Shown: positions 2,242 through 48,561, numbered from the stretch's first letter. The stretch: DNA of 64,000 nt from an uncultured Verrucomicrobiae bacterium (GCA_963762565.1 CAVXLD010000001.1:1120001-1184000), one strand, 5' to 3'. The notes: generated by a model from the sequence alone, not told the origin. Translations and numbers: made by a program.

Positions 2242-3234
2242 ATGCGAATACTCCGTCGAGTGATATGGTGGCTCGCGTTCGTGATCCTCTGTTTCGTAAC
2301 CGCTTGGGCAACTGCAGCCATTTTCTTCGATCTTCCGGCACGTAACCTGAGTGTGCCAGCCGCCACTATTTACGTAGCCTTAGTAGTAGCTATTCTGTTC
2401 TTTCTGAGGTTCAGGTGGGTTTCGCTGGGGTTTTGTTTCGTTTTATTTGCCGGCGTTCTTTGTTGGTGGTGGTCAATCCAAGCGACTGGCAAACGCGACT
2501 GGCGGCCGGATGTTGCCGAAACCGCCTGGACAGAAAGAGACGGAGACAAGATCACCATTCACAACCTGCGAAACTTTGATTACGAGCCGGGGCAGCCGGC
2601 CAAGCCCCGGTGGGAGACTAAGGTCTTAGATCTTAGCCAACTGCAAGGAGTGGATCTTTTTATTAACTTTTGGGGATCGACTATGATCTGTCACCCGATA
2701 GTGAGCTTTCAATTCGGGCCGACCGATCACGTAGCCATTTCGGTTGAGACCAGGATGGCCCAAGGCCAGACCTATTCCATGATTCGCGGTTTCTTCAAAC
2801 AGTTCGAGCTGATCTACATTGTCGCCGATGAACGCGACGTGATTAGGGTCCGAACGAATTACCGGCACGAACAACTCTACCTTTATCGAACCAGCATTCG
2901 ACCAGAACGAGCCCGAAGCCTATTCCTCGATTACCTGAAGAGCGTTAATGCCATCCACGTGCGACCGCATTTCTACAACGCGGTAACAGATAACTGCACG
3001 ACTAATGTGCGAACGCATACCGCAGCCACAACGGTAAAACCTGCTCCCTGGGATTGGCGAATGTTGTTGAACGGAACCGTAGACGAATTGGTGTACGAAA
3101 ACGGAGGATTCGCCAGCCACCTCCCCTTTGCTGAGCTCAAACCGATGTCGCTCATCGACGCCAAGGCTCAAGCTGCGGACCAGGCTCCCGATTTTTCTGA
3201 GCGGATCCGAGTCGGTTTGCCAGGATTCGACTAG
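2242..3234 (+). CDS. DUF4105 / Lnb N-terminal-like membrane protein
   Basis: Three N-terminal TM helices; conserved-looking ICHPIVSF and YNAVTDNCTT. Confidence 0.75.
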   Translation: MRILRRVIWWLAFVILCFVTAWATAAIFFDLPARNLSVPAATIYVALVVAILFFLRFRWVSLGFCFVLFAGVLCWWWSIQATGKRDWRPDVAETAWTERDGDKITIHNLRNFDYEPGQPAKPRWETKVLDLSQLQGVDLFINFWGSTMICHPIVSFQFGPTDHVAISVETRMAQGQTYSMIRGFFKQFELIYIVADERDVIRVRTNYRHEQLYLYRTSIRPERARSLFLDYLKSVNAIHVRPHFYNAVTDNCTTNVRTHTAATTVKPAPWDWRMLLNGTVDELVYENGGFASHLPFAELKPMSLIDAKAQAADQAPDFSERIRVGLPGFD

Positions 3235-7930: not shown

Positions 7931-8013
7931 GGGGACAGGTCAACAGTCGGCAAGAGTCTGTCGCTATCGACCGTATCATGCCGGCAACCGGCTCAATCAA
8001 TAATTGACCTGTC
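7931..8013. repeat. Miniature inverted-repeat unit
   Basis: GGGGACAGGTCAA at 7931, TTGACCTGTC at 8004; spacer related to the 38018-38097 unit. Confidence 0.85.
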
Positions 8014-8180
8014 ATTCTGCCGCTGGGGCATGCATAGTCGTGCGAGTGGCCGGAACGTAGGGCGCGTGATGAGGGGGGTACTTTTCCCTCGAAGCTGACC
8101 TGGAGAACAAGTCACCTGGGACTAAGGTCCAATAGCGCTACCAAGCCCGGCCGGCGATAACTGCTAGGAGCCCACAGCAA

Positions 8181-9149
8181 ATGAATCATGAAGGCAATTG
8201 GCTGCTCCCCAGTGGTGGCGGAGCGCAGCGGAATATCAGGCGGCGGGTCATCTCTCTTGCTATTTGGATCGCAGGTTGCACTCTGCTATTCAGTCCCTGC
8301 GCTCCGGTTCACGCCGGATGGCTAGAAGCGGACGTCGACTTCTCGAATTACGATGTGCCGTTATTCCAGCAGATCGTCAACCGCATCAAGGCCAAGGTTG
8401 CAGCCCGATTGGGAGAGGGCGTAAATACGCAGGACCGCTATTTTATTGTTCCGTTCGCTTTCCAAAAAAGGTGGAATAATCCGCAGTTTTCGCACTCGTT
8501 CATCTCCGTGATCCGCGTGCTCGGCGACGGCAAACAACCAAACCTCAGTCCGGGACTCCGGCGCGGGCGATTCAAGAACCGAGATTTTGAAGCATTTACC
8601 ATCAGCTGGGTGCCTCACGATTATGGTACTAATCCGGTGTGCGTTTTCGATGGCTTCGGCAGTCGGATTTTTCCAACCTGGAACAAATGTCCTATTGTCG
8701 TCGGGAGAGACTTCAGGCTGGCTGAGACACTGAAGGTCGCGCTGAATGACAAAAGTTCCGTCGGCATGTGGGGACCCTACGAGATCAGGAAAGAAGCGTT
8801 TGAGCTTGGCGTGAAGCGGATGCTTTTGCTCGACGGAGGAACTATCAAATATAAAGCCGATGACCGCCTTACTCGTAAGGATCAAGTCGCGATCAATTGT
8901 TTCCATGCGATGGCGAACTTGGAAGAACTTTATCCTAACGGCGGATTTCTAGGGTCGGGATTTAGGATGTGGGGAATCAATGGCACCGCCCGAGTTCTGA
9001 TCGAATACACCAAGGCGGTTCGTAACAGAGGCCTGCTGCTTGAGCCGGTCGATATCAAAAAAGATCTCTACGGATTTGTGTACGCCCCGGAGAGGAATAG
9101 CGGTGGCCTCTACGATCCTTTTCCGAACGCATCTGCGTACCACCAGTAG
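8181..9149 (+). CDS. Hypothetical exported protein
   Basis: 322-aa ORF, AGGAG RBS, signal peptide ending VHA. Confidence 0.65.
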   Translation: MNHEGNWLLPSGGGAQRNIRRRVISLAIWIAGCTLLFSPCAPVHAGWLEADVDFSNYDVPLFQQIVNRIKAKVAARLGEGVNTQDRYFIVPFAFQKRWNNPQFSHSFISVIRVLGDGKQPNLSPGLRRGRFKNRDFEAFTISWVPHDYGTNPVCVFDGFGSRIFPTWNKCPIVVGRDFRLAETLKVALNDKSSVGMWGPYEIRKEAFELGVKRMLLLDGGTIKYKADDRLTRKDQVAINCFHAMANLEELYPNGGFLGSGFRMWGINGTARVLIEYTKAVRNRGLLLEPVDIKKDLYGFVYAPERNSGGLYDPFPNASAYHQ

Positions 9150-9249
9150 GAATTCGTCCAATCGAAATGCGGCAAGTCTCAAAGACATCCGAGCCGCGGT
9201 TCGCAGCGAAGCGTGTGGCTGCGCTGCTACATTCTCTGATCGGGCGACG

Positions 9250-11919
9250 TCATTCACTTCTCTGCCTCGCAGCATCGGCGATATCACGAGCCACGAGCGC
9301 GGTCCAGCCGGTCTGGTGGCTTGCGCCTAGACCTCGACCGGTCTCGCCGTGGAAATATTCGTGAAAGAGGACAAGTTCGCGCCAATGCGGATCAGCTGCG
9401 AATCGGAGATCGTCTCCGTGACACGGGCGCCGTCCTGCGGCATCCGGCAGAAAAATACTCGCCAACCGCGCACCAAGTTCGTTCACGACTCCTTGAAGAT
9501 TCATCATACGACCCGAACCAGTAGGACATTCCACCTGCAACTTATCGCCGTAAAAATGGTGGTACCGCTCCAGTGCCTCGATCAGCAAATGGTTGACAGG
9601 AAACCAAATCGGTCCGCGCCAATTCGAGTTGCCGCCGAAGAGGTGAGTGCGGGATTCGCCGGGATCATAGTCGACGCGATGCTCTACGCCTTCCGCTATA
9701 AAGACGCACGGACTTTTCTCGTGGAACTTCGATAGGGACCGGATTCCATAAGGCGAGAGAAACTCACTCTCGTCGAGCATATAACTCAGCAGGCGCTGCA
9801 AACGCTCGCGCGCCGGAATCGCCAGTAGAAATCGTTGACTGTCGCCGTGCTCGTAAAAGCTGATATTGTGAGCAAGATCGGGACGGTGGTTTATGAACCA
9901 GGCCGCCCGTTTGTAGAAACCTGGAAGTTTCTTGATTGTTTCCCCCTCCAGGACTTCGGTCGCGATCAATGGCAACAGTCCGACCAGGGAGCGTGTCTTG
10001 AGTGGGATGGCGCTCTGATCGGTCCGCAGCTGGTCGTAGTAAAAGCCGTCCTCTTCGCTCCAAAGCCCGCTGCCGCCGAGTTGGTTCATCGCATCTGCGA
10101 TCTGGACGAAGTGCTCGAGAAACTTCGATGCCATGTCCTCATAGGCCCGATAAATACGCAGTCCTTCGCCAACCGCCAGCTCCAGCGCCATCGAAAGCAT
10201 TGTGGCGCAGTAAAACGCCATCCAGGCGGTGCCATCGGCCTGCCGGAGGACGGCTCCGTTTGGCAAGACCTGAGAGCGATCGAACACGCCGATGTTATCC
10301 AACCCAAGGAAGCCGCCCGAAAACAGGTTCTCACCGTTCGCATCCTTACGGTTCACCCACCATGTGAAATTGAGCAGCAGTTTCTGAAAGACGCTTTCGA
10401 GAAAGTCGCGGTCCCGTGCGCCCCGCTCGCCCGAGATTTTATAGACGCGCCAGGCGGCCCAGGCATGCACTGGTGGGTTCACGTCCCCAAAGGCAAACTC
10501 GTACGCCGGAATCTGGCCGTTCGGATGCATGTACCATTCCCGCAACAGTAGAATCAATTGCTCCTTGGCGAACTCTGGGTCGATATGAGCCAGCGGGATC
10601 ATGTGGAATCCAAGGTCCCATGCGGCGAACCATGGATACTCCCACTTGTCCGGCATCGAAATGATGTCGCGGCTATAAAAATGACTCCAAGCTTTGTTGC
10701 GGCCCTGCAGCCGACCGGTGGGCGGCGCCGGACCGGACGGATCGCCGCTAAGCCAATCCTGAACGATGTAGTGATAGAATTGTTTGCTCCAGAGCAGCCC
10801 TGCGGCGGCTTGGCGTACCACGCCCTGCTCGATACTGTTAAACTTTATCCTGTACAGAGAGCCGTAGTACTCATCAGCCTCACGCATGCGTTCGGCGAAC
10901 ACCGCGTCAGAGTCCGGAGCCTTCGTCGAAGCCTCCTGCTCATTGAAAAGCCGCAAGGAGATGGTTTGCGTGGAATAGGATGGGATGCGCAAAACATAGT
11001 GGAGAGCTGCCTTCGTGCCGGTCTTTGCTGGATTGACGGCGCCGTCCTTACCGTGAATAACGTAGTCGTGAAATGCGTCCTTAAAAAACGCGTGGTCGGG
11101 CCCGAGATTGTACAAGCGGCGCGTGTTCGTGTCATTCTCTGTAAAGAGCGCAAGCGGACGGGGAGAATCCGGGGTCGTCCCGCTATCGAGCAGATAATGG
11201 CCGAGCGATTCATGATGGAGCGAGAGACTGTCGGCGCCTGCCCACGTAATCCTCGGTTTAGTGGCACTGCGTTCATCGATCGCGCCCCATGACCAAGTGT
11301 TGCGAAACCAGACGGTCGGTAGCAGGTGAAGCGTCGCTGCCTCGGCGCCGCGATTGGCCGCAGTGAGGCGGATCAGGATGTCGTTAGGCCCGTTTTTTGC
11401 ATACTCGGCCGTGATATCGAAATAACGACTGTCGTCGAATACGCCGGTATCCAAAATCTCGAATTCAGGATCGTCTTTGCCCCGGCGTCGATTCTCCGCC
11501 ACCAGCTGCGCGTATGGGTACTCGGCCTGCGGATATTTATAAAGCGCCTTCATGTAGGAGTAAGTCGGCGTCGCGTCGAGATAGAAGTATTGCTCCTTCA
11601 CATCCTCTCCATGATTCCCTTCCGGACCCGTCAAGCCGAAGAGGCGCTCTTTCAGAATCGGATCCTTGCCATTCCACAACGCCAATGCGAAGCAAAGCCG
11701 GCATTGACGATCGGCGATGCCGAGCAGTCCGTCTTCCCCCCATCGGTAGGACCGGCTTCGAGCATGATCGTGCGGGAAGTAATCCCAACAACCGCCGTCT
11801 GGGGAGTAGTCTTCGCGCACCGTGGCCCACTGGCGCTCCGATAGATAAGGTCCCCAACGTTTCCAGTTTGCCTCACGCTGCGCATCGGCTGTAAGACGCG
11901 CCTTCTCGGCATTGCTCAT
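9250..11919 (-). CDS. GH63 / MGH1-like glycoside hydrolase (glucosidase)
   Basis: WGPYLSERQWATVREDYS, MPDKWEYPWFAAWD, GASHQTGWT; start taken at MSNAEK after GGGGAG. Confidence 0.9.
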   Translation of the reverse strand: MSNAEKARLTADAQREANWKRWGPYLSERQWATVREDYSPDGGCWDYFPHDHARSRSYRWGEDGLLGIADRQCRLCFALALWNGKDPILKERLFGLTGPEGNHGEDVKEQYFYLDATPTYSYMKALYKYPQAEYPYAQLVAENRRRGKDDPEFEILDTGVFDDSRYFDITAEYAKNGPNDILIRLTAANRGAEAATLHLLPTVWFRNTWSWGAIDERSATKPRITWAGADSLSLHHESLGHYLLDSGTTPDSPRPLALFTENDTNTRRLYNLGPDHAFFKDAFHDYVIHGKDGAVNPAKTGTKAALHYVLRIPSYSTQTISLRLFNEQEASTKAPDSDAVFAERMREADEYYGSLYRIKFNSIEQGVVRQAAAGLLWSKQFYHYIVQDWLSGDPSGPAPPTGRLQGRNKAWSHFYSRDIISMPDKWEYPWFAAWDLGFHMIPLAHIDPEFAKEQLILLLREWYMHPNGQIPAYEFAFGDVNPPVHAWAAWRVYKISGERGARDRDFLESVFQKLLLNFTWWVNRKDANGENLFSGGFLGLDNIGVFDRSQVLPNGAVLRQADGTAWMAFYCATMLSMALELAVGEGLRIYRAYEDMASKFLEHFVQIADAMNQLGGSGLWSEEDGFYYDQLRTDQSAIPLKTRSLVGLLPLIATEVLEGETIKKLPGFYKRAAWFINHRPDLAHNISFYEHGDSQRFLLAIPARERLQRLLSYMLDESEFLSPYGIRSLSKFHEKSPCVFIAEGVEHRVDYDPGESRTHLFGGNSNWRGPIWFPVNHLLIEALERYHHFYGDKLQVECPTGSGRMMNLQGVVNELGARLASIFLPDAAGRRPCHGDDLRFAADPHWRELVLFHEYFHGETGRGLGASHQTGWTALVARDIADAARQRSE

Positions 11920-11977
11920 GCCGGTGTCAAACTCCCCTTCACCGCGAGTGCCCATCATGTAACGCGTGCGATACTGG

Positions 11978-13174
11978 TCACGCCGTTGTCGAGAAACCGC
12001 CTCGTCTTCCAACTTGCCCAGCGGCGGCACCGTTACCAACACCAGCACTCCGCTGCCCCAAGATCTGCTGACCATGCGCTTCGGCCCGCGCGAACACGAC
12101 TTTGTACACCTGGCAATAAGGATCCTTGGCTAACAGCGTTCCCTTCGCGCTGTAAGTTCGCACAGGACATCCGCCGTGGCAGATCGATAGGTAGCGGCAG
12201 GCCAGGCAGTCTTCATGCTCCATTAGATGCTTCGGCCGCTCCACGAAATCCTGCCGCGCTCGACTGGTTTTTAGCATCCGCGTAAGGTCGGGTTCGCGGA
12301 ACATATTACCAAAGAAGTATTCGGGATAGCTGGTAACCCAGCAATCGCACTGAGCAACCGTCCCTCTGGCGTCCACTGAGATAAATTGATTGGAGCAGTT
12401 CTCTTTCCAGATACAGGGTAAACGTGCCGGTCGGCCGACGAAGTGATCAATCAAGGCATCGAACGGACCCAGCGATACACCAGCGTCGTAGCCTTTCTGT
12501 ATCCAGATATCAAAGAGCTCACCGAGAAACCGGGCCAGTTCACCATTATCGAGTTGAAAGCCGCCTTCGACATCTTTCGCCGGGCCACCGGCAAACGGGG
12601 TATTCACCTGGAAATCATCGAGACCAAGGTCCTCGGTGAAGTACCGATAGAACCTCTCCGCGCCGGCTTCCAGACTGGCTTTATGGAGTACGGCAATGAC
12701 CCCGATCTTGATGCCTGCTTCGCGTGCTTCGTGCAGCCTTTTAGTCCAAAGTTTAGTGTAAGCTTCCGCACCGCTCTTGATAAGCTTCCGATGGACATTG
12801 GGATAGTCCATCGACGTTCCGACGGATCCGTTAAACATCCCATGGATTACCCTATTCCACGATGGTGAATAGCTAATAAGATTCGTTTGTAGATAGTGAA
12901 CGAATTTGCGTCCTTTCTCCGCGGCAGCGCGTCCCATAAGATTTCCAGCGTCTGCAAACCAGTCGGGACCCATAATCATCGCTTCTCCGCCCTGCCAATA
13001 GATCTCGCAAACTTCGATATTCTCATGTTCGAGATGGTCAAGCAGTCGCCGAGTTAACAACGGGAGCAACGCCGGTGAAAGTCGATGCGGTTCCTTGTGC
13101 TCAAAGCAGTAATCGCAGGCGACGTTGCACTCTGACGTCGGTAGGAGGATCACGCTGAAGACTCGTCCGTTCAT
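11978..13174 (-). CDS. Radical SAM/SPASM peptide maturase
   Basis: CNVACDYC (CxxxCxxC), WQGGE, SPASM cysteines C..C..C / CLACRYLSICHGGCP / DPYC. Confidence 0.92.
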   Translation of the reverse strand: MNGRVFSVILLPTSECNVACDYCFEHKEPHRLSPALLPLLTRRLLDHLEHENIEVCEIYWQGGEAMIMGPDWFADAGNLMGRAAAEKGRKFVHYLQTNLISYSPSWNRVIHGMFNGSVGTSMDYPNVHRKLIKSGAEAYTKLWTKRLHEAREAGIKIGVIAVLHKASLEAGAERFYRYFTEDLGLDDFQVNTPFAGGPAKDVEGGFQLDNGELARFLGELFDIWIQKGYDAGVSLGPFDALIDHFVGRPARLPCIWKENCSNQFISVDARGTVAQCDCWVTSYPEYFFGNMFREPDLTRMLKTSRARQDFVERPKHLMEHEDCLACRYLSICHGGCPVRTYSAKGTLLAKDPYCQVYKVVFARAEAHGQQILGQRSAGVGNGAAAGQVGRRGGFSTTA

Positions 13175-13189
13175 CAGTAGGGACTCCGG

Positions 13190-14104
13190 TTATTCTACGG
13201 GCGACGCCAGGGGTCCAACCTTCGCCAGCTCCTCTGTTTGATCAGCACGATCTCGGTTGGCAAGCTCGTGACCCATCTCATCGGCAGCAGCCTTTATGGC
13301 GAAGAACAACTGTTTGACTCCTCCGCAATCGTAAGCGGGATCCGGCCACTTGAAGTATCCTTGGCAGATCTCTTGGAAAGGACAAGTCACACACTCGGCG
13401 TCTTGCTCCAGTAGGCGTCTAAACCAAGCCTCCACAAAAGTCGTGGACGAGAGATCCGATGACGGAGAACTGAAGCCGCCGGGTAATTCAAAGCCGACGC
13501 CCACTCCTCGACGCAGAAATAAAGCTGGGTCTTCTTCAAGAATCATCCAGAGCGAACCGTCGCCGGTGCCGCACATGGCAGCCAACACCGAATGGAAGAA
13601 CTCTACCGGCGCTTCCACCATCGGATCACGAAGGTAGAAGGTTACCGCCTCGGTCAATTCAATTAGTACTTCAGGAGATGGTTGCCCCGGCAGTAATCGC
13701 ACCGGCAGTCGCAATGCGATAGCCACCTTGACGGCTCTAAGAAACCCGGGCGAGGCAGGCATACTCACCCTGACGTCACGGACGGCAAAGACGTCGACCA
13801 GTCGATACAAATCGGAAAACTGCGAACCGGGATCCGTAATGAGGACATCCAGAGGAACATTCGATGTGCTTTGCGCCGCCGGGATCCAAGCATCCTGATC
13901 GCTGAGCAACTCCTCTACTTGGATCCATTGTAAGCTAGCCGGGGCATTACTAAGCCATTGGCTAAGTTCAGCCCGGCTCCTGACGATGGCGACAAATGGG
14001 CTCCCACCGTGGCCGGACGCTAAATCGGACCGCAAGAAAAGAATGGGCCAATCGGGTTCTAGCGGCGCGCTATTGTACCCATCATTTACCAGCGGTTGAT
14101 CCAT
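13190..14104 (-). CDS. Hypothetical protein with C-terminal SPASM-like Cys cluster but no radical SAM motif
   Basis: CVTCPFQEICQG...YDC near C-terminus; no CxxxCxxC; overlaps the precursor stop. Confidence 0.7.
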   Translation of the reverse strand: MDQPLVNDGYNSAPLEPDWPILFLRSDLASGHGGSPFVAIVRSRAELSQWLSNAPASLQWIQVEELLSDQDAWIPAAQSTSNVPLDVLITDPGSQFSDLYRLVDVFAVRDVRVSMPASPGFLRAVKVAIALRLPVRLLPGQPSPEVLIELTEAVTFYLRDPMVEAPVEFFHSVLAAMCGTGDGSLWMILEEDPALFLRRGVGVGFELPGGFSSPSSDLSSTTFVEAWFRRLLEQDAECVTCPFQEICQGYFKWPDPAYDCGGVKQLFFAIKAAADEMGHELANRDRADQTEELAKVGPLASPVE

Positions 14105-14433
14105 GAACCTCCGCCGCCATAGTACCGGCGGTTAATCCAGCCGCCACCACCCCCGCCGCGACCATTCAACCAGCCACCACCGCCACCCCAGCCTCCCCGG
14201 CCGTTGATCCAGCCGCCGACGCCCCCGCCAGCTCGCCGATTCACCCAGGCGCCAGCCTGAGCCGCCGGTGGAGATGCCAGCCAAGCGCCGCCGATTATTG
14301 CCGCCGCAATTGCGGCCCCTGACCATTTGCCCAGGCTTTGTAGAAACCACCGGCGTCCGAGCAGTTCCTGATTGTCACCTGAGCCGGTTGTTCCAGCAGA
14401 GTGCTCACTTTTCATAACCGTAAAATCGGCCAT
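14086..14433 (-). CDS. Gly-rich RiPP precursor with five WxN motifs (GrrA/OscA-like) and a Tat-like signal
   Basis: GRRWFL, hydrophobic stretch, AQA; then WVN, WIN, WLN, WIN, WIN in Gly linkers. Confidence 0.85.
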   Translation of the reverse strand: MADFTVMKSEHSAGTTGSGDNQELLGRRWFLQSLGKWSGAAIAAAIIGGAWLASPPAAQAGAWVNRRAGGGVGGWINGRGGWGGGGGWLNGRGGGGGGWINRRYYGGGGSWINRW

Positions 14434-14436
14434 TTG

Positions 14437-14931
14437 TTAGGCGTCTTCCTTGCCCGTTGCCCCTGTCAACGTTGAGAAATGCATGGCAGCGATCCGCCAT
14501 TTGCCGGCCTCTTTTGCGACGGTAAGGGATAGGTTGATGGGGTAGGTGAACTCTTTCCCAGCCTTTTCGCCCGAGATATTTCCGGACGTCATCAGCCAAC
14601 CCATGTCAGTGCCAACCGCCGCTATTTTGAATTGGTATTCGTACTTTTGTTTTCCCTCGTCGAAACCCTGGAAGAAGTGCTGATAAGCAACTTTGATCTC
14701 ATCCGGACCGGACCAGATCTCTCCGGGACCGGTTCCCATGATAGCGGCCTTTTCAGTCAGGCATGCCATAACCCCCTCGAGGTTATGGTTAGTGAAGGCT
14801 TCATCGTGCGCCTTTAATAAAGCGCGAATCGGCTCTATCTCTGGATTTTCGGATGTCTCCGCATTCACTGCGGTAGGCAGCGTGGCAGCAATGCTAACGA
14901 CCCCGGCGATAATTGCTTCTCTTCGGTTCAT
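14437..14931 (-). CDS. NTF2/SnoaL-like protein with Tat-like signal
   Basis: MNRREAIIAG...AVNA; C-terminal GKWRIAAMHFS typical of SnoaL-like folds; 3 nt from precursor start. Confidence 0.8.
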   Translation of the reverse strand: MNRREAIIAGVVSIAATLPTAVNAETSENPEIEPIRALLKAHDEAFTNHNLEGVMACLTEKAAIMGTGPGEIWSGPDEIKVAYQHFFQGFDEGKQKYEYQFKIAAVGTDMGWLMTSGNISGEKAGKEFTYPINLSLTVAKEAGKWRIAAMHFSTLTGATGKEDA

Positions 14932-15821: not shown

Positions 15822-16046
15822 ATGGACAAAGACGTAGAACACTTAAAGCTACTCTCGATTTTCTATTATATCGTGGGCGGGCTGGCCTGCTTTTGTGGAC
15901 TGTTATGGATACTATATATCGTATCCGGCGTCATTCTGGTAGTCGCGTCGGGATCTATGGCAAGTGACGATCGCATGGGAGCATCTATCGGCGGCGTCGC
16001 GGCCGCTATCGTCGGTCGTCTTGCGACTCTAGCGTGCGGTAGTTGA
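15822..16046 (+). CDS. Membrane protein, probably 3'-truncated
   Basis: MDKDVEHLKLLSIFYYIVGG followed by TM helices and an abrupt end. Confidence 0.45.
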   Translation: MDKDVEHLKLLSIFYYIVGGLACFCGLLWILYIVSGVILVVASGSMASDDRMGASIGGVAAAIVGRLATLACGS

Positions 16047-16171
16047 CTACCTGGCATTCTTTGTTCCGGCTGCCGGAACTATTGTCTAGATGGCGTCGCC
16101 GAGCTTCCGCGATCCGACGAACAATGTTGTCGTTCCTCGCACCAGGCATATCAGAACACAACTTCCGGCAC

Positions 16172-17080
16172 TGCGCAGTCACCGATCTAATGGAACCGGA
16201 TCGCATTGTGATTGGATCGAACAGCCAGCGGGCGTTAGCGATTATGGAAAAGGTTTACGCGCCGTTTTCGGCGCCAATTATGGTGACGGATGTCAAGAGC
16301 GCTGAGTTGATAAAGCATGCGGCCAACTCGTTTCTTGCGCTCAAAATTTCTTATATCAACGCGGTGTCCGCAATTTGTGAGACCACTGGAGCAGATATTG
16401 AACAGGTCGCAGAAGGGATTGGGGCGGACAAACGAATCGGAAGGAGCTTTTTCAGCGCCGGTCTGGGATATGGAGGGTCTTGCTTTCCGAAGGACCTTGC
16501 CGCCTTCATTGCCATCAGCGAACAAATTGGCGAACCCTTCCAGCTCCTGCGCGAGGTCCAGAGAATAAACCGCCAGCAGCGCGAACGCTTCGTAAAGAGA
16601 TTACGCGACACTTTGTGGGTGTTAAAAGAGAAGCGAATCGCAGTTTGGGGTCTTACCTTTAAACCACATACCGACGACGTTCGCAGTTCGGTGGCCGTCG
16701 ATCTGGTAAACGATCTTATTCGGGAAGGCGCCCTCGTGACCGCCTACGACCCAAAAGGCAACCAAAAGGTTCAAGAGCTCAATCTTTGTCCAGGAGTTCA
16801 TCTGGCCAAGTCCGCGCTCGAGGCTGTGCAGGATGCTGAAGCATTAGTCTTAGCAACGGAATGGCCCGAGTTCAGTGAAGCGGATCTCACAGAGGTATAT
16901 CAGCGGATGCATATGCCAATCGTTTTCGACGGAAGGAATCTATTCGATCCGGCTACCATGCGAGATCTCGGTTTCCAATACTTCGGCATCGGGCGTCCGT
17001 TGGACGACCCCGGCGACAGTAACCGGAATAGTAACGGCACAAGCACGCGTGGCGACCTCGTTGCCCTCCGCTCTAACTGA
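16172..17080 (+). pseudogene. ugd: 5'-truncated UDP-glucose 6-dehydrogenase
   Basis: PDRIVIG, AELIKHAAN, GYGGSCFPKD, FKPHTDD present; N-terminal NAD-binding GxGxxG domain absent. Confidence 0.8.
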
Positions 17081-17792: not shown

Positions 17793-19405
17793 GGGGCTGT
17801 TGCCCAATAGCGCCTAATTAGTATGAGGATTTTGGGTTAGTAATTGGAAGGTTTGGCGAAGGGTTAGCTTGGCAAGAAGGAGGTTGAAATCGGGTGAAGG
17901 AGCCGGGTGAGCCAGCGGAGCAACTGAGTAAGGCGATAGGCTAGCGCAGGGTTGGTTTGGGAGAGATGCCTGAGGAGTTTTCTCAGGTTCTGTACCGTAG
18001 CAATGAGTAAGTCTTGGATAGCTTGCTTCCAAAGTCCACGCCAACGAGAACGCTTGAGCCCATGACGATTGGCGGCGTCGGCAAAGCTCCTTTCCATGAG
18101 ATGTTGGCGGCGTTTAAGGTCGGCTTTAGCAGCCTTGGAGTTAGCAATTTTGCGAGCCTTTTCTAACCAGGCTTGATCCCGATGGCGGTGAATGGTGCGT
18201 CCGGTGCGGGAACGAGTGCACAAGGCGCGCAGCTTGCACACTAAACAGGTCCCCTTGGCGGTGACATATTCCCAGGTCAAGCGCTTGGGGTGTAAGCGCC
18301 TGGCTTTCATGATCTGCTTGGCGGGACAGAGATAGGTATTAGTCTGTGCATCGTATCTAAAATGCTCGTCGGAATAAATGCCCTCGCTTCGTCCCTTACC
18401 TCGGATCGACTCCCCCAGCAGCTTCACATGGGCTTTAATCCCCGCTTTTTGACAGCTAATCAGGTTGCTGACGCTGCCGTAACGCGCATCAGCAATCACA
18501 GTTCGCACTGCTTGATCGGTAGTATCTTCATGAGCTTCAATGAGCCTCAACAGTTGCGAGGCTTCGTCGACCGCACCGGTGGTGGTCTCTACGGCGGTGA
18601 TGATCTCATGGGCATCGTCGACTACTCGATGAGTCTTATAGCGTAAGCGGCTCTTTAGGCCGGCGTGTCGAACTAGAGTCGCATCCGGGTCGGTCGTACT
18701 GCGGAACTGGCGATTGGTTTTGGAGTATTGGCCAATGGCAGAACCGCCGCTGCCGCTGTCCCCTGATGGCGGATCTTGGTCTTGGTCGGGTTCATCGAGC
18801 TTTTGCACTTGCTCTTTGGCAGTTTGCTCGATGGCATTGAGCGTCTCCGCAGACAGGGGCTTAACTGAACCCAGATTGGCATCGGCCTCCACTAGGCTCG
18901 CATCCACGTGGATCTTACGGCCTTCTACCAGACCAGCCTCCACGCACTGCTGCACTACCCGGCTAAATAGCGAGACAAACACTTCTTTACCCCAGCGCTT
19001 GCGCGCCTTGCTCAACACACTGTGGTCGGGAATCTGATCGTCTAGCCCATAGCCAAGAAACCAAAGGTAATCCAGCCGTTCAGGGATGATGCGCATCAGC
19101 TCCCGCTCGCTCTTGATATCATCCAAGAATAACAACAACATCATCCGGACAATCACTTCGGGCGGAACCGACTTGTTGCCTCTTCGCCCATAAGTGTGCG
19201 CTACCTCCTTACGCACAAAACTCAAATCTAACGCCGCCCTGATCCGCCGCAGTGGATGATCGTCCCGCACCCGCTTATCTAAATTGACCCGATAGCTCCA
19301 GATCGGAACCTGCGAGTCTTCTTCGTCCATCATGGGAACAATACACTATCAAATCTGTAACCAGCAAAGCAATACTATAATGGTTATTAATTGGGCAACA
19401 CGCCC
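17793..19405 (-). mobile_element. IS1182-family insertion sequence
   Basis: Imperfect 16-bp terminal inverted repeats GGGGCTGTTGCCCAAT (17793) and ATTGGGCAACACGCCC (19390) around the transposase. Confidence 0.85.
17864..19333 (-). CDS. IS1182-family DDE transposase
   Basis: DHPLR, PDHSVLS, HVDAS, STTDPDA, ADARY, Cys cluster, ERSFA. Confidence 0.92.
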   Translation of the reverse strand: MMDEEDSQVPIWSYRVNLDKRVRDDHPLRRIRAALDLSFVRKEVAHTYGRRGNKSVPPEVIVRMMLLLFLDDIKSERELMRIIPERLDYLWFLGYGLDDQIPDHSVLSKARKRWGKEVFVSLFSRVVQQCVEAGLVEGRKIHVDASLVEADANLGSVKPLSAETLNAIEQTAKEQVQKLDEPDQDQDPPSGDSGSGGSAIGQYSKTNRQFRSTTDPDATLVRHAGLKSRLRYKTHRVVDDAHEIITAVETTTGAVDEASQLLRLIEAHEDTTDQAVRTVIADARYGSVSNLISCQKAGIKAHVKLLGESIRGKGRSEGIYSDEHFRYDAQTNTYLCPAKQIMKARRLHPKRLTWEYVTAKGTCLVCKLRALCTRSRTGRTIHRHRDQAWLEKARKIANSKAAKADLKRRQHLMERSFADAANRHGLKRSRWRGLWKQAIQDLLIATVQNLRKLLRHLSQTNPALAYRLTQLLRWLTRLLHPISTSFLPS

Positions 19406-23135: not shown

Positions 23136-24254
23136 TTATTCGTATTCACCCAAGTAATGCCGAAGAATCTCGTGCCACTCCGGTTCAGCGAGCCGCGCGA
23201 GCAAGCATCGGTTGATATATTCGCGTAACGGGCTCCCTTCCTTAACCCCAAAGCCATAGAGTTCTTCGTCCAAATGAATCGGCAGGACGATGAGTACGTT
23301 CTGATACTCCGTATGGATGCGATAATAAAGAATCGGGCCATCGTTGATGACCGCATCGATTTTGCCGCTCTTAAGCGCCGGCAAGAGCTGTCCAGCGGGC
23401 ATCGTCTTGAACTTGAGATGATTCATTGCAGCGTACTGCGCAGCAGTCGTGTCCGGCGCCGTTCCGATGCTCAAGTCGCGTAGATCTTCCGGACTCTGGA
23501 TCGCTTTCGGGCCGCCCAATTTCTCGGCCGTCAGCAAAGAAGCCATCGTTGCCGTGAATATGGAGATCATTACTAAACTAATGAACATCCACCCTATCGC
23601 TACGATCCGCCCGATCAATGTCCTCGGGTAAAGATCGCCGTATCCGACCCCTGTCATAGTCACGGCCGACCACCACACGGCCGAACCGATTCCCGGGAAT
23701 CGTTTACCATGCCCTCCAAAGTGAGCGGCGTTCTTACGTCGCTCGCAAAGCCAAATTAACACGGCGGCCGCGAGCAGGATGCCCAGAATGAAAAGGACGA
23801 TTTTTAACACGTGCCCTGAGAGCAATGCTCTTAGCAAAGGGATAACTAAATTCGAATTAGGAGCGGAATCCTTTGCCCGCATCGCGACTCGCAATCCGGA
23901 AGTGAAAAAACGGTGAGTAAAATCAATTTGCTCTTCGCGCTCCGCTGTCACGGTAATCGGGTCTATACAAACGTCGATCCAACCATTCATTAAGGCATTG
24001 AACCGGTCCGCGACCGGGATCTCCTTGAACTCAAAATCGACTTTGAGATCGGAGGCAATCTCTCGCCAAAGATCAACGCTGATGCCGGTCCACGACCCAT
24101 CCGCTTGCCGCATATCGAAGGGCGCCGCGGTATACACCCCAACCGTTAGTCTATGCCAAACGGGCGACGGGTTTCCACTTGGCGACGCTGATTCTGCATG
24201 GACACCGAATAGAAGAAGGCAACAAAATAGAAAGATTAGAACCGCGCTTTTCAT
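23136..24254 (-). CDS. GluR0-like ligand-gated K+ channel (SBP family 3 split by a pore domain)
   Basis: Signal peptide, SBP S1, TM1, WWSAVTMTGVGYGD filter, TM2, S2. Confidence 0.85.
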   Translation of the reverse strand: MKSAVLIFLFCCLLLFGVHAESASPSGNPSPVWHRLTVGVYTAAPFDMRQADGSWTGISVDLWREIASDLKVDFEFKEIPVADRFNALMNGWIDVCIDPITVTAEREEQIDFTHRFFTSGLRVAMRAKDSAPNSNLVIPLLRALLSGHVLKIVLFILGILLAAAVLIWLCERRKNAAHFGGHGKRFPGIGSAVWWSAVTMTGVGYGDLYPRTLIGRIVAIGWMFISLVMISIFTATMASLLTAEKLGGPKAIQSPEDLRDLSIGTAPDTTAAQYAAMNHLKFKTMPAGQLLPALKSGKIDAVINDGPILYYRIHTEYQNVLIVLPIHLDEELYGFGVKEGSPLREYINRCLLARLAEPEWHEILRHYLGEYE

Positions 24255-24385
24255 AGACCGGGGAGACGGCTTCTGTAACATTCTCTCATAATCTGTTTTA
24301 GCGAGGCCGTATTGCGGACAGGTCAATGATCATGGCTAACCGTAAAGGAAATCTATGGAGTGACCCTACCGGAGGCGACGAAGTG

Positions 24386-27478: not shown

Positions 27479-27853
27479 TTAGGCACCTAAGATGACCGGC
27501 TTGCCATGCGGGGTGCGCCGGTACGCCGCGGCCCACGCCTCCTTTCGCACCAGCAGCGAAGCCCGGTTGGCCAAACCTTTGGCCGTGACCAGGTTTTCGA
27601 GAGCCGCAAGCCAATGATCATAGTAATGCGAACCGTCGTCGGGTTCCCCGCGACTCGCAGCGAGCTCGAGCTCGTTGGCGAGGGCCGCCGCCCATTCCTT
27701 ACATGTGAAATGCCCCTGTTCAGAGAGTTTCACGGCGAGTGCAAATGCCTGGGCCTGCCAAGGCTCGGCAAACACCGGCTCGCCGTTGTCTTGCGGCAGC
27801 CGAGGCAGAGCTTGGAGCCGCTCGGGCTCGAATATAGAATTAGGCGTACTCAA
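27479..27853 (-). CDS. Nitrile hydratase accessory protein (P14K-type)
   Basis: PVFAEPWQAQAFA, YYDHWLAALE, RTPHGKP; TTG start overlapping the nthB end. Confidence 0.88.
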   Translation of the reverse strand: MSTPNSIFEPERLQALPRLPQDNGEPVFAEPWQAQAFALAVKLSEQGHFTCKEWAAALANELELAASRGEPDDGSHYYDHWLAALENLVTAKGLANRASLLVRKEAWAAAYRRTPHGKPVILGA

Positions 27854-28499
27854 GATAGTCGTCCCACATATCGATATAAACGGCGTCGCGTTCAGAGGCT
27901 TGCTCTCCCCACAGCTCGCGTGCGGCAAATCGTACCGAGTACAGGTGTTGCGGCTTCTCGCCCAGGGAATGGGCGTTGGTGTCTGGGTAGACGTATACAC
28001 CATGGTCCCGGTGGATTGTGCCAAGTTTGCCGCGTGCGTACCGCGGCAGTCGCGTGTGCCCAGTCGGGTGGATGTTGCGGGCGCGTACGAGTTGGCCCAC
28101 GGTGAAGCGCGCGTCCACCCGTACATCTCGACTCGCAGGGTTACCCTTCGCGACCACACCTGGAACGGCATTCGCAATGAGCGCAGGAGCGGCTTTGGGC
28201 GAGTCCGGCGCCGGCTTGCCACTCTCAACTTCGGCGCGAGTGACCAGTGCACTTTCGACGATTAGCTCGATGAGCGCGTGTAGCCGTTGCTCATAGTAGC
28301 TCATGCCCAGATATTCCGGGGCGGGAATTAGTTCGACCGCGTGACGCGAGGCGTCGCCGGTCCATTTGGTCCAGGCCCTCACCGCGCGGTTAAGCGCGAA
28401 TACCCGGGCTTCCCAGGGCTCGTGGAATACCGGCTCGTTGCTCTCGTATTGGATGGGACCCATGCCGTGCATACCGCCCATGTCATGGACGCTATTCAT
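27840..28499 (-). CDS. nthB: Nitrile hydratase beta subunit
   Basis: [33 protein letters not shown]. Confidence 0.96.
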
Positions 28500-29131
28500 C
28501 GGTTGGCTCCGGTGTGCGACAGCTCAACTTTGGCGACACCCACCATGGCATCACGAGTGACCAGCGACGCGAGTTCCTCCTCACTCAGTTTTTCAGTGCC
28601 AGCTGGCCGCTCAGGCAGCACCAAGTAGCGCACTTCCGCTGTGCTGTCCCAAACCCGTATTTCGACATCAACCGGCAACTCCAGACCGAATTCCCGTAAT
28701 ACGCCGCGTGGATCGATCACCGCGCGTGAGCGGTAAGGCGCGGACTTGTACCACACCGGCGGTAAACCGAGAACCGGCCAGGGATAGCAGGAGCACAACG
28801 TGCAGACCACTAGGTTGTGCACCCTGGGCCCATTAGCGACCACCATCATATGTTCGCCCTGCCCGCCGGTGTAGCCCAGTTCGCCGATCGCAGCGGTGGC
28901 GTCGGTCAGCAGGCGCTGCTTGTAAGAGGGATCGATCCAGGCCCGCGCTACTACCCGCGCGCCGTTGCGCGGACCAACCTTGTGCTCGTAGGTATCGATC
29001 AACGCATCAAGAGCCGCCGAATCGACCAGCCCCTTTTCGACTAACAACGATTCGAGCGCTTTGACGCGAAGAGTGAGATCCGAAGGAACTGCCTGGTGCC
29101 CGTGATCGTGATCGGCCGCTCTCATCGTCAT
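28496..29131 (-). CDS. nthA: Nitrile hydratase alpha subunit, cobalt type
   Basis: VCTLCSCYP; Thr in CTLCSC indicates the Co type. Confidence 0.97.
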
Positions 29132-31059: not shown

Positions 31060-32525
31060 TCACTTCCGGCCAAGCTTGCGGATGAAGGTGTAGAAGGCCG
31101 GTGCGAAAAGAAGCCCGAAGCAGGTCACACCGATCATTCCAAAGAGCACGGCGGTTCCAAGGGATTGCCGCATTTCGGCGCCGGCCCCCGTCGCCACGGC
31201 GAGCGGCGCGACGCCAAGGATGAACGCGAAGGAGGTCATTAAGATAGGAGGCAGCCGCGTCCGGGCGGCATGAACGGCAGCCTCGCCGGCGCCGACACCG
31301 TCTGCTTCTTCGTTCTGGCGCGCGAACTCAACGATCAGGATTACATTCTTGGCAGCCAGGCCCACTAGGACGACAAACCCGATCTGGGCCAGGATGTCGA
31401 TTGGCATACCGCGCGAAAGCAGCCCTGTGACGGAAGCAAGCAGGCACATTGGCAGGATCAAGACGATGGATAAAGGCAACTTCCAGTTCTCATACTGGGC
31501 GACCAGGACAAGGAACACGAACAGGGCAGCGGCTCCGAACACTAGCAGAGTCGGCGTCCCGCGCTCCTCTTGCTGGTAGGCAAGGTCGGTCCATTCAAAG
31601 CTAATGCCCTTTAGGGAGGACTTGGTGTGCCAGTTCCTCCATTCGGTGCAGCGCGGTACAGAGGCGACGCCTGGTGCTGCCACGCCCTGCACCTCGGCTG
31701 CGGGGTACAGATTGTACCGGGGCACTCGGTAAGGGATCGTTGTATCTATCAGTCGCGCCACGGTGCCTATCGGTACCATCTGACCTGACGCGTTGCGCGC
31801 CCTCAGACGTGCGATGTCCTCAGGCTTCTCTCTGAACCGGCCGTCGCCCTGCGCGATCACTTGATAGGTGCGACCGAGATAATTGAAGTCGTTCACATAC
31901 TGAGAGCCCAGATAAACCTCAAGCGTCGAGAAGACGTCAGTGGGTGTCAATCCGACCTCTTCTGTTTTCACCCGGTCGATATCGGCGTAAATCGAAGGGG
32001 ATCTGGCATTGAAGAGCGTGAAGACGCCGGCGAAGTCCGGGTCCTTGTTAGCGGCACTCACAAGCGCTTTGGCTGCCTGGACCAGAGCCTCTGGTTGGAC
32101 GCGACGGTCGACGTGGTGGCGTCGAGTCCGGCGAAAGGTGCGACGTGCTCAACGCCCTTCGTCGTCAGTATAATATCAATACCTCTGCGAACGACTTTCT
32201 CGGTCCGCGCCAGGCTCGCACCCGGCGGAAGCTGAACGAGATTGATTAGATAGCCCTGGTCTTGTTCTGGAATGAATCCGGTGGGCGTTCGGGAAAACTC
32301 AATAACAGCAACGCCGATCAGGCCGACATAGACGACAAGAACGAGGGGCACGGTTCGGACGAGCCGACCCGTGACTATTCCATACCAGGAGGAAAGCTGG
32401 TCGAATCCGAAATTAAACTTCTCGAAGCCAGCGCGAAGAAGGAGCCGAGGCAGACCGTCTCGCGCAACGGCGTGGGCATCGTGTGCCTTGAACAGCACCG
32501 CGCAAAGCGCAGGGCTCAGCGTCAC
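31060..32525 (-). pseudogene. C-terminal half of an HAE1 RND efflux permease, truncated, deleted and frameshifted
   Basis: TLSPALCA, GFIPEQDQG, YVNDF, GLAAKN.ILIVEFA, ILMTSFAF; N-terminal half absent. Confidence 0.85.
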
Positions 32526-47748: not shown

Positions 47749-48561
47749 ATGATCTTCAAAGGTCTGTTCGGGCCAATGGCTGCTCTGATTGGCCTGGGGT
47801 TCTCTTTCCCGGCGGTCGCTGAAGCCGGTGGACCGGTTCGGCTTTACAGTGCGGACCGTACCCATAACGATTTTTGGGAAAACAGGGGAAGTCATCGCGA
47901 TCGAACAGGAGAACGGAGCGATGGGCCTCCAGGTTAAGGAATCGGACGGATTCAATGTCGAGGTGGTTAATCAGTTGAAGGAACCAACCAGTATCCATTG
48001 GCACGGCTTGATCCTACCCGCGTTGATGGACGGAGTTCCGTTTGTGAGCCAGGATCCAATTCCTCCCGGTGAGACTTATCATTATCAGTTTGCGTTGAAG
48101 CAAAGTGGAACTTACTGGCTCCATTCTCACTATGGTCTACAGGAACAATTGTTAGCCGCCGCGCCGTTAATCCTGGAAAGCGAAGCGCAAAACGCCAAGG
48201 CCGATGAACAATACACAGTGCTCTTGAGCGATTACTCGTTTACGTCGTCTGCAAAAATCCTCGAACGATTGAAGGGCGGTATGCCGGTTCAGCGGCAACC
48301 AACTTCTTCGTGAACACCGGAGCGTTGACCAGCCAGTTAACGGCGGTTGATGGAAAAGATATCGAGCCGGTATCGGGAAATTATTTTCAGTTAGGGATCG
48401 CGCAACGGATCGATCTGCTGATGAAAATCCCGGATAAAGGGGACGCTTTTCCTATTCTGGCCCAGCGTGCCACATCCTCTATCACGCGGCGGTGGGCATG
48501 TTCACGGTTCTCAAATACGACGGCGCCGATACCAAGTTTTGGCAACCCGAGAAAACGCTGA
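47749..48561 (+). pseudogene. Multicopper oxidase, frameshifted and internally deleted
   Basis: IHWHG, MDGVP, WLHSH; later QRIDL and a CHILYH-like remnant out of frame. Confidence 0.8.

Follow-up and report, generated by a model that had tools for sequence, protein, structure and literature searches.

What does a radical S-adenosylmethionine (SAM)/SPASM enzyme do beside a small gene for a glycine- and tryptophan-rich peptide, and by which route would the product leave the cytoplasm? The question is raised by a four-gene cassette at positions 11978..14931, on the minus strand, of a 64,000-nt stretch of DNA from an uncultured Verrucomicrobiae bacterium (GCA_963762565.1 CAVXLD010000001.1:1120001-1184000), hereafter the window. 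In order of transcription the cassette encodes an NTF2/SnoaL-like protein, a putative precursor peptide, a 304-aa protein and the enzyme. The answer that we hold to be somewhat probable, largely by analogy with known systems, is that the peptide is a signal-bearing precursor of a peptide that is made ribosomally and modified after translation (RiPP), on which Trp-Asn Cβ cyclophanes would be made in the cytoplasm, and that it would then be exported by the twin-arginine translocation (Tat) pathway and freed by signal peptidase cleavage. The parts of this answer differ in strength. That the enzyme modifies the adjacent peptide is highly probable; export by Tat rather than Sec, judged from the signal motif, is reasonably probable; and the specific Trp-Asn Cβ cyclophane, argued by analogy, stands at about an even chance.

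The four minus-strand open reading frames (ORFs) lie at 14931..14437 (164 aa), 14433..14086 (115 aa), 14104..13190 (304 aa) and 13174..11978 (398 aa). An earlier reading of the window from its sequence, the original prediction, had described a tightly packed minus-strand operon of four genes, and the ORFs were found at exactly its coordinates. Only 3 nt separate the stop of the NTF2-like gene from the ATG of the precursor gene, and the gap between the 304-aa and radical SAM genes is 15 nt, while the precursor and 304-aa genes overlap by 19 nt, the ATG of the latter lying within the codons of the final S-W-I-N-R-W of the peptide. Similar arrangements recur in other genomes. Of 127 confirmed places given by a locus scan with one genome per species, 79 were retained as loci. 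In 19 of 28 aligned homologues, which begin M[DG][QK/G]x, the start of the 304-aa gene falls within the codons of the last repeat, and in 28 of 55 loci the stop of this gene overlaps the start of the radical SAM gene (ATGA/GTGA). To judge from these overlaps, the 304-aa gene is translationally coupled on both sides within the cassette. The promoter scan gave no promoter-like site against 2.5 expected, the terminator scan gave two terminator-like sites against 4.2 expected, neither of them at the operon end, and no Rfam match was found within the window.

The precursor (14086..14433, minus strand) is 115 aa long as annotated. Its close relatives are mostly 104-110 aa, and translation may therefore begin at the second Met (14415) and not at 14433, which would give 109 aa. 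The predicted core, residues 61-115 (14089..14253), is a Gly-rich, cationic sequence that has five W-[VIL]-N motifs and ends in WINRW. It consists of 55 aa, including 25 Gly, 7 Trp, 7 Arg and 5 Asn, and all five Asn belong to W-x-N motifs; there is no Cys, and the sole Ser precedes a Trp. The motifs are W-V-N at residues 63-65 (14239..14247), W-I-N at 75-77 (14203..14211), W-L-N at 88-90 (14164..14172), W-I-N at 99-101 (14131..14139) and W-I-N at 111-113 (14095..14103). In an alignment of 37 homologues (alignment A3), W63 and N65 of the first motif, W75 and N77 of the second, and W99, N101 and the following R102 of the fourth are invariant; the third is a repeat within the variable middle part of the alignment, and at the fifth the Ser-Trp codons share nucleotides with the start codon of the 304-aa gene (14104..14102). 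When the core was shuffled 200,000 times with its composition preserved, five W-x-N motifs were reached once. The only other ORF of the window with at least three is an unrelated 357-aa FGE-sulfatase-like protein, which has three. Both the core sequence of the original prediction, which is letter for letter the DNA translation after AQA, and its count of five WxN motifs with V, I or L in the middle proved correct.

No Pfam or NCBIfam model matches the precursor, even at E<=10, and its homologues, 702 clusters at E<=1e-5, are nearly all named 'hypothetical protein'. Motif statistics were taken from 63 precursors, seven truncated or frameshifted ones (L019, L032, L037, L062, L068, L075 and L077) being excluded. 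W-x-N motifs hold 374 of the 448 core Trp residues in this set, and the motif on which the original prediction laid its emphasis is indeed the conserved feature of the peptide. Among these 374 motifs the middle residue is I in 214, V in 99, A in 20, L in 18, Y in 12, F in 6, G in 4 and N in 1, and the residue that follows the Asn is mostly R (278) or G (80). A core carries 4 to 15 repeats, and the precursor ends nearly always in W-[IV]-N-R-[WRFY]. Since the spacers are poly-Gly or GPRRGG-like, the constraint seems to sit on the W-[IV]-N-[RG] unit and not on the spacer. Those from Competibacteraceae differ: the precursors of L071, L072 and L074, encoded downstream of the radical SAM gene, have 15 repeats each, with WYN/WFN alternating with WAN/WGN.

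Ahead of the core, residues 1-60 (14254..14433) form the signal or leader, made up of an acidic N-region, the motif RRWFLQSLGKWS, an Ala/Gly-rich hydrophobic stretch and AQA. The twin-arginine and conserved leader motif RRWFLQSLGKWS occupies residues 27-38 (14320..14355). All 63 collected precursors have an RRxFL-type motif ([RK]RxFL; RRWFLQS in the window), and the longer pattern [RK]RxFLxxxGKWS is seen in 37 of 37 aligned ones, where R28, F30, L31, G35, K36, W37, S38 and A40 are invariant. In the same 37 sequences the acidic n-region of ~20 aa has on average 5.2 acidic against 0.8 basic residues, the h-region is Ala/Gly-rich with a Kyte-Doolittle value of ~1.0, and the c-region contains a basic residue in 22. 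Most of them, as judged without a count, have a small-x-small site immediately ahead of the first repeat.

The enzyme (11978..13174, minus strand; 398 aa) matches the SPASM model TIGR04085 with 54.2 bits (cut-off 27). Its radical SAM [4Fe-4S] motif, CNVACDYC (C16, C20 and C23; residues 16-23, 13106..13129), is invariant in 12 of 12 aligned homologues, and so are, in the alignment, C254, C260, C276, C278, C323, C326, C332, C336 and C354 of the SPASM region (residues 254-354, 12113..12415). This region aligns along its length with that of the anaerobic sulfatase-maturating enzyme (anSME), including C276-D277, with C254, C260, C276, C323, C326, C332, C336 and C354 among the aligned cysteines. With CxxxCxxC and the cysteines for two auxiliary clusters in place, the enzyme is by its sequence a member of the radical SAM/SPASM superfamily. 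Family scores place it less clearly. The NCBIfam model of anSME, TIGR03942, gives 141.2 bits (cut-off 349.45), followed by DynA (NF041298, 137.9 bits, cut-off 450), DarW (NF041300, 130.2 bits, cut-off 650), DarE (NF038005, 115.9 bits, cut-off 650), GrrM/OscB (TIGR04261, 74 bits, cut-off 310), YhhB (67.2 bits, cut-off 445), AmcB (61.6 bits, cut-off 425), XyeB (59.8 bits, cut-off 450) and FxsB (56 bits, cut-off 370). In PDB sequence searches anSME (4K36-4K39) is matched over the full length with 86-94 bits and ChlB with 45-47 bits. By these scores the enzyme is outside every curated family, and nearer to the anSME and daropeptide-maturase side than to the GrrM/OscB side. The original prediction had taken the pair for a GrrM/OscB-type enzyme with a GrrA/OscA-type precursor. 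Neither assignment is upheld: anSME, DynA, DarW and DarE all score above GrrM/OscB, the comparison by hidden Markov models that the prediction had proposed leaves the enzyme below the cut-offs of GrrM/OscB, XyeB and FxsB alike, and the GrrA/OscA model TIGR04260 (cut-off 31) does not match the window precursor at E<=10, reaching 22.4, 11.1 and 8.8 bits on three of its relatives.

The association of the enzyme with the peptide is supported by its conservation. The four genes occur in the same order and on the same strand in 60 of the 79 loci, mostly from Verrucomicrobiota. The original prediction had proposed checking whether this neighbourhood is conserved, and had regarded a general lack of such a precursor beside homologues of the enzyme as fatal to it; the precursor is adjacent in these 60 loci. 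Seven of the remaining 19 loci are cut by a contig end or have a partial enzyme (L018, L023, L032, L050, L055, L058 and L059), and ten belong to Competibacteraceae, with an enzyme ~52% identical. Four of these ten have the order radical SAM, NTF2, precursor, three have the radical SAM and precursor genes, and the 304-aa gene was found in none of the ten, profile search included. As the enzyme, the NTF2-like protein and the precursor stand together in the new order, they evidently stay linked through rearrangement. One Competibacteraceae locus, L078, has three tandem precursor genes at 7991..9452.

Homologues of the enzyme form 977 clusters, the top 120 of which are at least 72% identical to it; the few with names come from Chthoniobacterales, Terrimicrobiaceae and other Verrucomicrobiota. 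Across the phylum-wide cassette the enzyme is 65-86% identical, and in a plasmid collection only matches of ~27% identity were found. In the enzyme tree (69 rows, with 11 partial sequences left out) there are two deep clades, one of Competibacteraceae and one dominated by Verrucomicrobiota. Within the latter are two metagenome-assembled genomes (MAGs) of Vulcanimicrobiota, one 'Burkholderiales' MAG and one 'Pyrinomonadaceae' MAG, a nesting that indicates either gene transfer or mis-binning. At NCBI the enzyme of Chthoniobacter flavus is named 'SPASM domain-containing protein' (WP_006983535.1) and a Verrucomicrobium precursor 'hypothetical protein' (WP_050025248.1). A literature search found no description of the cassette, although mention in the sequence similarity network figures or supplements of triceptide papers is possible.

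Which bond the enzyme would make can be approached through its relatives. The class motif of triceptides, an aromatic-X-X core beside a radical SAM/SPASM enzyme, is present, the enzyme being adjacent in 60 of 79 loci. XncB is described as joining Trp C6 to Asn Cβ and OscB as joining Trp C7 to Asn or Asp Cβ, both at i/i+2, and the dynobactin enzyme as forming a Trp C6-Asn Cβ bond at i/i+3 (PMC11002830). A shared origin has been reported for the enzymes that form three-residue cyclophanes (3-CyFEs) and the maturases of daropeptides (PMC12912966). Moreover, the full-length sequence of DarE is reported to be nearest to anSME among known enzymes, and yet DarE is a cyclophane former (PMC10288494). 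Given the spacing in XncB and OscB, the dynobactin bond, the shared origin and the DarE precedent, one three-residue cyclophane per W-x-N would be the most likely product.

The same peptide and enzyme could instead engage in another chemistry, such as anSME-like Cβ oxidation, a C-O or C-N cross-link of the darobactin or dynobactin kind, epimerisation of the conserved Ile or Val, or a link between Trp and an aliphatic residue. This appears unlikely, although several observations are consistent with it: the best scores of the enzyme are those of anSME and the Asp beside C276 is conserved; the nearest RiPP models, DynA, DarW and DarE, describe enzymes that also make ether and C-N links; and 313 of 374 motifs have I or V between Trp and Asn. 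A link of Trp C7 to Ile Cδ is indeed known from ItfD, but there the Ile is described at i+2 and not at i+1 (PMC11002830). Epimerisation finds no counterpart in the 25 best of 40 NCBIfam matches, which include no epimerase-family model. The invariant Trp and Asn at i/i+2 reproduce both the spacing and the residues of documented Trp-Asn Cβ cyclophanes.

Regarding export, inspection of the motifs suggests that the precursor begins with a cleavable signal of the twin-arginine type with an AxA site. The original prediction had called the precursor Tat-like, and the RR motif, the moderate h-region and the AxA site agree with this label, whereas the curated Tat models are silent. A Tat-type signal fits the proposed product, because several rigid rings would make the peptide a poor Sec substrate; the authors of the bufferin study describe macrocycles as poor substrates of Sec (PMC11626156). 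No natural Tat-exported RiPP was found in the literature search, as judged by title and abstract. The original prediction had also pointed out that no peptidase or ABC exporter is encoded nearby, and none is conserved among the neighbours of the 79 loci either. Because the precursor has its own cleavable signal with an AxA site, the cassette would need no dedicated protease or ABC exporter. The invariance of GKWS exceeds what export needs, which suggests that the signal region is also a recognition sequence. Since GKWS is retained in Competibacteraceae, which lack the 304-aa protein, the enzyme itself may take part in reading the leader.

It is also conceivable, but improbable, that the product is not released at all: the signal would then remain uncleaved as an anchor, or the peptide would be attached to the envelope, and its tethered Gly/Trp/Arg-rich tail would work together with the NTF2-like protein. 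Such a role would account for a GKWSGAAI stretch that is invariant far beyond the needs of a signal peptide, and it would suit a cassette that is conserved phylum-wide, with enzymes 65-86% identical, and has no immunity or export genes among its neighbours. However, the small-x-small site ahead of the first repeat argues for cleavage, and the moderate hydrophobicity (~1.0) and Ala/Gly-richness of the h-region are those of a cleavable signal and not of an anchor. A further reading would make the enzyme a common protein maturase, of the anaerobic sulfatase type or another, with the neighbouring Gly-rich gene encoding an unrelated secreted protein. Although anSME is the top NCBIfam and PDB match, this can hardly be right, as 141 bits is far under the 349 bits that the anSME model demands, the gene of the peptide adjoins that of the enzyme in 60 of 79 loci in a linkage that survives rearrangement, no sulfatase occurs in the 13 annotated of 25 recurrent neighbour families, and the core is without Cys and has a single Ser, placed before Trp.

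The 304-aa protein (13190..14104, minus strand) has no Pfam or NCBIfam match (E<=10) and no PDB sequence match; the SPASM models PF13186 and TIGR04085 in particular give none at E<=10, and none was found in the plasmid collection. Its homologues form 796 clusters, practically all 'hypothetical'. A profile search of a database of 1.84 billion representatives (clusters at 50% identity) gave 420 clusters at E<=1e-3, of which 302 reach E<=1e-10, the proteins being mostly of ~275 aa, and in one neighbouring Atlas cluster 17% of the members carry PF13186. Across 28 aligned homologues there are four invariant Cys, within ECxxCxxxxxCxGYFKWPDP, and no CxxxCxxC; in the window the motif reads C238-x2-C241-x5-C247-GYFKWPDP-x-C260 (13325..13393). 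The AlphaFold2 model of the protein has a predicted local distance difference test score (pLDDT) of 80 and a predicted template modelling score (pTM) of 0.76. When this model was compared with known structures by Foldseek, the best matches were ChlB 9gmc/9gm3 (E 2e-4, TM-score 0.47-0.49, ~329 columns, 14% identity), and anSME came after ChlB. In an hhalign comparison with the enzyme, only the C-terminal Cys motif matches SPASM CxxCx5C (probability 29%, E 6e-4). The protein thus reads as a radical SAM/SPASM paralogue that has lost the SAM cluster, a degenerate 'pseudo-rSAM' whose paralogy is indicated by its predicted fold. The label 'SPASM-only' in the original prediction holds in part: the predicted fold resembles radical SAM/SPASM enzymes as a whole, but no SPASM domain match was obtained.

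Fusions provide some clues to its function. Five of the six long matches to the 304-aa profile that were examined are fusions: P0293 has a HemN-like radical SAM domain followed by a 304-aa-type domain; in P0333, P0347 and P0385 the 304-aa-type domain is followed by an HxsC4/NirJ-like radical SAM domain; and in P0326 it is followed by an ApyS-like RiPP methyltransferase. The sixth, P0315, is without a family match. Because the 304-aa-type domain is recurrently fused to peptide-modifying enzymes, a general accessory role beside such enzymes seems plausible. A three-chain complex was predicted from precursor residues 18-70, the 304-aa protein and the enzyme; the score of the precursor did not exceed that of a control with a replaced enzyme by the required margin, and thus speaks neither for binding nor against it. 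At locus L026 (4999..7197) the 304-aa protein and the radical SAM enzyme form one continuous ORF, which may be either a natural fusion or a frameshift of MAG assembly.

The first gene of the cassette (14437..14931, minus strand) encodes a 164-aa protein with an N-terminal MNRR followed by a hydrophobic signal. Its Pfam match to SnoaL_3 (PF13474) has 52.1 bits against a cut-off of 22, with DUF4440 and SnoaL_2 also matching. In the AlphaFold2 model (pLDDT 84), residues 1-25 (MNRREAIIAG…VNA) are disordered and signal-like, and Foldseek places ketosteroid-isomerase-like NTF2 proteins on top (E 9e-10). Score and fold match both confirm the NTF2-like nature that the original prediction had given to this gene. 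Sixty aligned homologues share conserved GTGPGExWxG and HFS, and all 60 have the same N-terminal beginning. The gene always lies directly upstream of the precursor gene, even after the rearrangement in Competibacteraceae. With an RR signal of its own, the NTF2-like protein should meet the peptide outside the cytoplasm.

Taken together, these observations can be arranged into a tentative mechanism. The radical SAM/SPASM enzyme would abstract a hydrogen at each motif while the peptide is in the cytoplasm, and the Trp indole would be joined to Cβ of the Asn at i+2, each three-residue cyclophane causing a loss of 2 Da per motif. The conserved signal region would double as the leader. The 304-aa protein could serve the enzyme as a non-catalytic accessory in peptide handling or as a scaffold, keeping one four-Cys site, and it would be dispensable in the Competibacteraceae version. 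Stiff and multiply cyclised, the peptide would exit by Tat and not by Sec, be released by signal peptidase I, and meet the NTF2-like protein in the periplasm, where the latter might act as a binder or as a tailoring enzyme.

Several points weigh against this mechanism. With none of the cyclophane families does the enzyme reach the curated cut-off, and its single best score is that of anSME. Its invariant Asp adjoining C276 aligns with C276-D277 of anSME, and we take this D277 to be the proposed base of anSME. In 313 of 374 motifs I or V stands in the middle, a preference for which a Trp-Asn link has no obvious need and which could point to other chemistry. The cyclophane chemistry is argued by analogy, and the function of the product from the breadth and conservation of the cassette. 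The curated Tat-signal models PF10518 and TIGR01409 do not match the window precursor at E<=10, and on a relative (L048) a Tat-signal model reaches 10.5 bits against a cut-off of 22.7. In L017 and L043, neither of which has N runs, the 304-aa and radical SAM genes are present while the precursor and NTF2 genes are absent from the flank, and in three of the ten Competibacteraceae loci the radical SAM gene stands alone. Finally, the accessory role of the 304-aa protein is drawn from its fold and fusions, and the role of the NTF2-like protein from its fold and signal.

Comparison with known systems shows both likenesses and differences. Like the present peptide, the GrrA/OscA precursors of cyanobacteria (~110-125 aa) have a Gly-rich, repetitive C-terminal half with aromatic-x-Asn, and in the GrrM/OscB system, too, the precursor lies beside a radical SAM/SPASM enzyme without a RiPP recognition element (RRE) domain. 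Unlike GrrA/GrrM, however, the cassette has a twin-arginine-type signal instead of a plain leader, a pseudo-rSAM partner and a presumably periplasmic NTF2-like protein; it belongs to another phylum, its middle residue is Ile or Val, and both the GrrA and GrrM models stay below cut-off. DynA, DarW and DarE are the best-scoring RiPP models for the enzyme, and the enzymes that they describe link Trp to a Cβ. In contrast to the dynobactin and darobactin systems, whose cores are short, single-copy, ABC-exported and act on BamA, and whose cut-offs of 450-650 are well above the scores of the enzyme, 4-15 repeats are found here in a long, Gly-rich, signal-bearing peptide.

Among all families, anSME gives the best full-length match, with the same SPASM Cys layout and C276-D277 aligned. 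The substrate of anSME, too, has an export signal and undergoes its modification ahead of export, and its motif is Cys/Ser-x-Pro/Ala-x-Arg. Unlike anSME, the enzyme scores under 349, the adjacent peptide is without a sulfatase motif, and no sulfatase gene was found in the cassette or in the 13 annotated of 25 recurrent neighbour families, the rest of the genomes being unsearched. ChlB (9GM3/9GMC), a triceptide synthase solved with its precursor leader, provides the best structural match of the 304-aa protein; it differs in that it gives only 45-47 bits to the enzyme, and in that the 304-aa protein matches the fold alone, without the SAM-cluster cysteines. ChlB is reported to make several cyclophanes on one peptide (PMC12912966). 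Bufferins are described as long signal-bearing RiPP precursors that are modified in the cytoplasm with the help of a partner protein and released in the periplasm, with no dedicated protease or exporter, a wide distribution and a physiological role (PMC11626156). They differ from the present system in using an MNIO plus DUF2063, thiooxazoles on Cys and a Sec signal, where the cassette has a radical SAM enzyme and a twin-arginine-type signal. By sequence, the cassette is triceptide-like in its motif and enzyme superfamily. It is distinct in its enzyme clade, in the signal that would serve as leader, in the pseudo-rSAM partner family and in an obligatory, presumably periplasmic NTF2-like protein.

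The breadth and conservation of the cassette suggest a physiological role in the envelope or periplasm rather than that of a strain-specific antibiotic; at the least, such a role fits them as well as an antibiotic does. A bolder version, which at present we consider doubtful, is that of a phylum-wide, Tat-exported poly-cyclophane housekeeping peptide whose signal is its leader and is read by a dead radical SAM/SPASM paralogue in place of an RRE. If this Tat-exported housekeeping peptide exists, it would represent the first natural RiPP family that needs Tat because its rings cannot pass Sec, and its recognition module would be one that is met again in fusions with radical SAM enzymes of several unrelated classes and with a RiPP methyltransferase.

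If the cyclophane chemistry is true, the cassette would represent a large branch of cyclophane RiPPs, with ~700 precursor and ~1000 enzyme clusters at 90% identity, in Verrucomicrobiota, a phylum under-explored for natural products. An apparently Tat-type secretion signal would replace leader, protease and exporter. Many different radical SAM enzymes seem to have a partner from a pseudo-enzyme family that no curated model describes, and a putatively periplasmic NTF2-like protein appears to be obligatorily linked to the peptide. Similarity to anSME would once again be no predictor of sulfatase maturation. Experiments on the system are within reach, since it is carried by a cultured organism, Chthoniobacter flavus Ellin428 (L042).

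Gene families that recur around the cassette are RND/HlyD, MFS, GH1, MgtC-like and Lnb_N, but no flanking family reaches more than 19 of the 79 loci. For this reason RND/HlyD, MFS and Lnb_N were rejected as members of the cassette. A periplasmic protein with an Lnb_N domain is encoded in the window at 2242..3234 (plus strand), ~9 kb from the cassette. In L001 (2424..3560) and L071 (3586..5490) Lnb_N proteins are encoded just upstream of the cassette; their clusters occur in 5 and 7 of 79 loci, possibly by coincidence. Directly downstream of the radical SAM gene, on the same strand, is a GH63/MGH1-like glycoside hydrolase gene (9250..12075, minus strand). The ORF as listed (941 aa) overlaps the radical SAM gene by 98 nt, and a later start, at ~11951 or at the Met of MSNAEK, is more likely. 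This GH63-like gene (9250..~11951) was rejected as a fifth member, since none of the 79 loci contains a homologue.

Other genes of the window include several that look incomplete. A UDP-glucose/GDP-mannose dehydrogenase ORF (16043..17080, plus strand) has the central and C-terminal domains only and may be truncated. An IS5-type DDE transposase (DUF772 plus DDE_Tnp_1_6; 17864..19333, minus strand) lies ~800 nt downstream of the 3′ end of the dehydrogenase; the N-terminal end of the latter (~16043), where the domain is missing, is ~1.8 kb from the transposase. Adjacent ORFs at 31060..32525 (minus strand) cover only positions 694-1020 and 479-609 of the AcrB model and look like a broken RND gene, and a multicopper-oxidase fragment at 47789..48313 (plus strand) has the N-terminal domain only. 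The ORF at 23136..24326 (minus strand) combines SBP_bac_3, a ligand-gated channel domain and Ion_trans_2, the architecture of a prokaryotic glutamate-receptor-like channel, and genes for the alpha subunit (301.9 bits) and a beta-like subunit of nitrile hydratase adjoin at 27479..29131 (minus strand). Finally, a protein with an FGE-sulfatase domain, of the aerobic formylglycine-generation type and unrelated to the radical SAM cassette, is encoded at 49481..50551 (minus strand).

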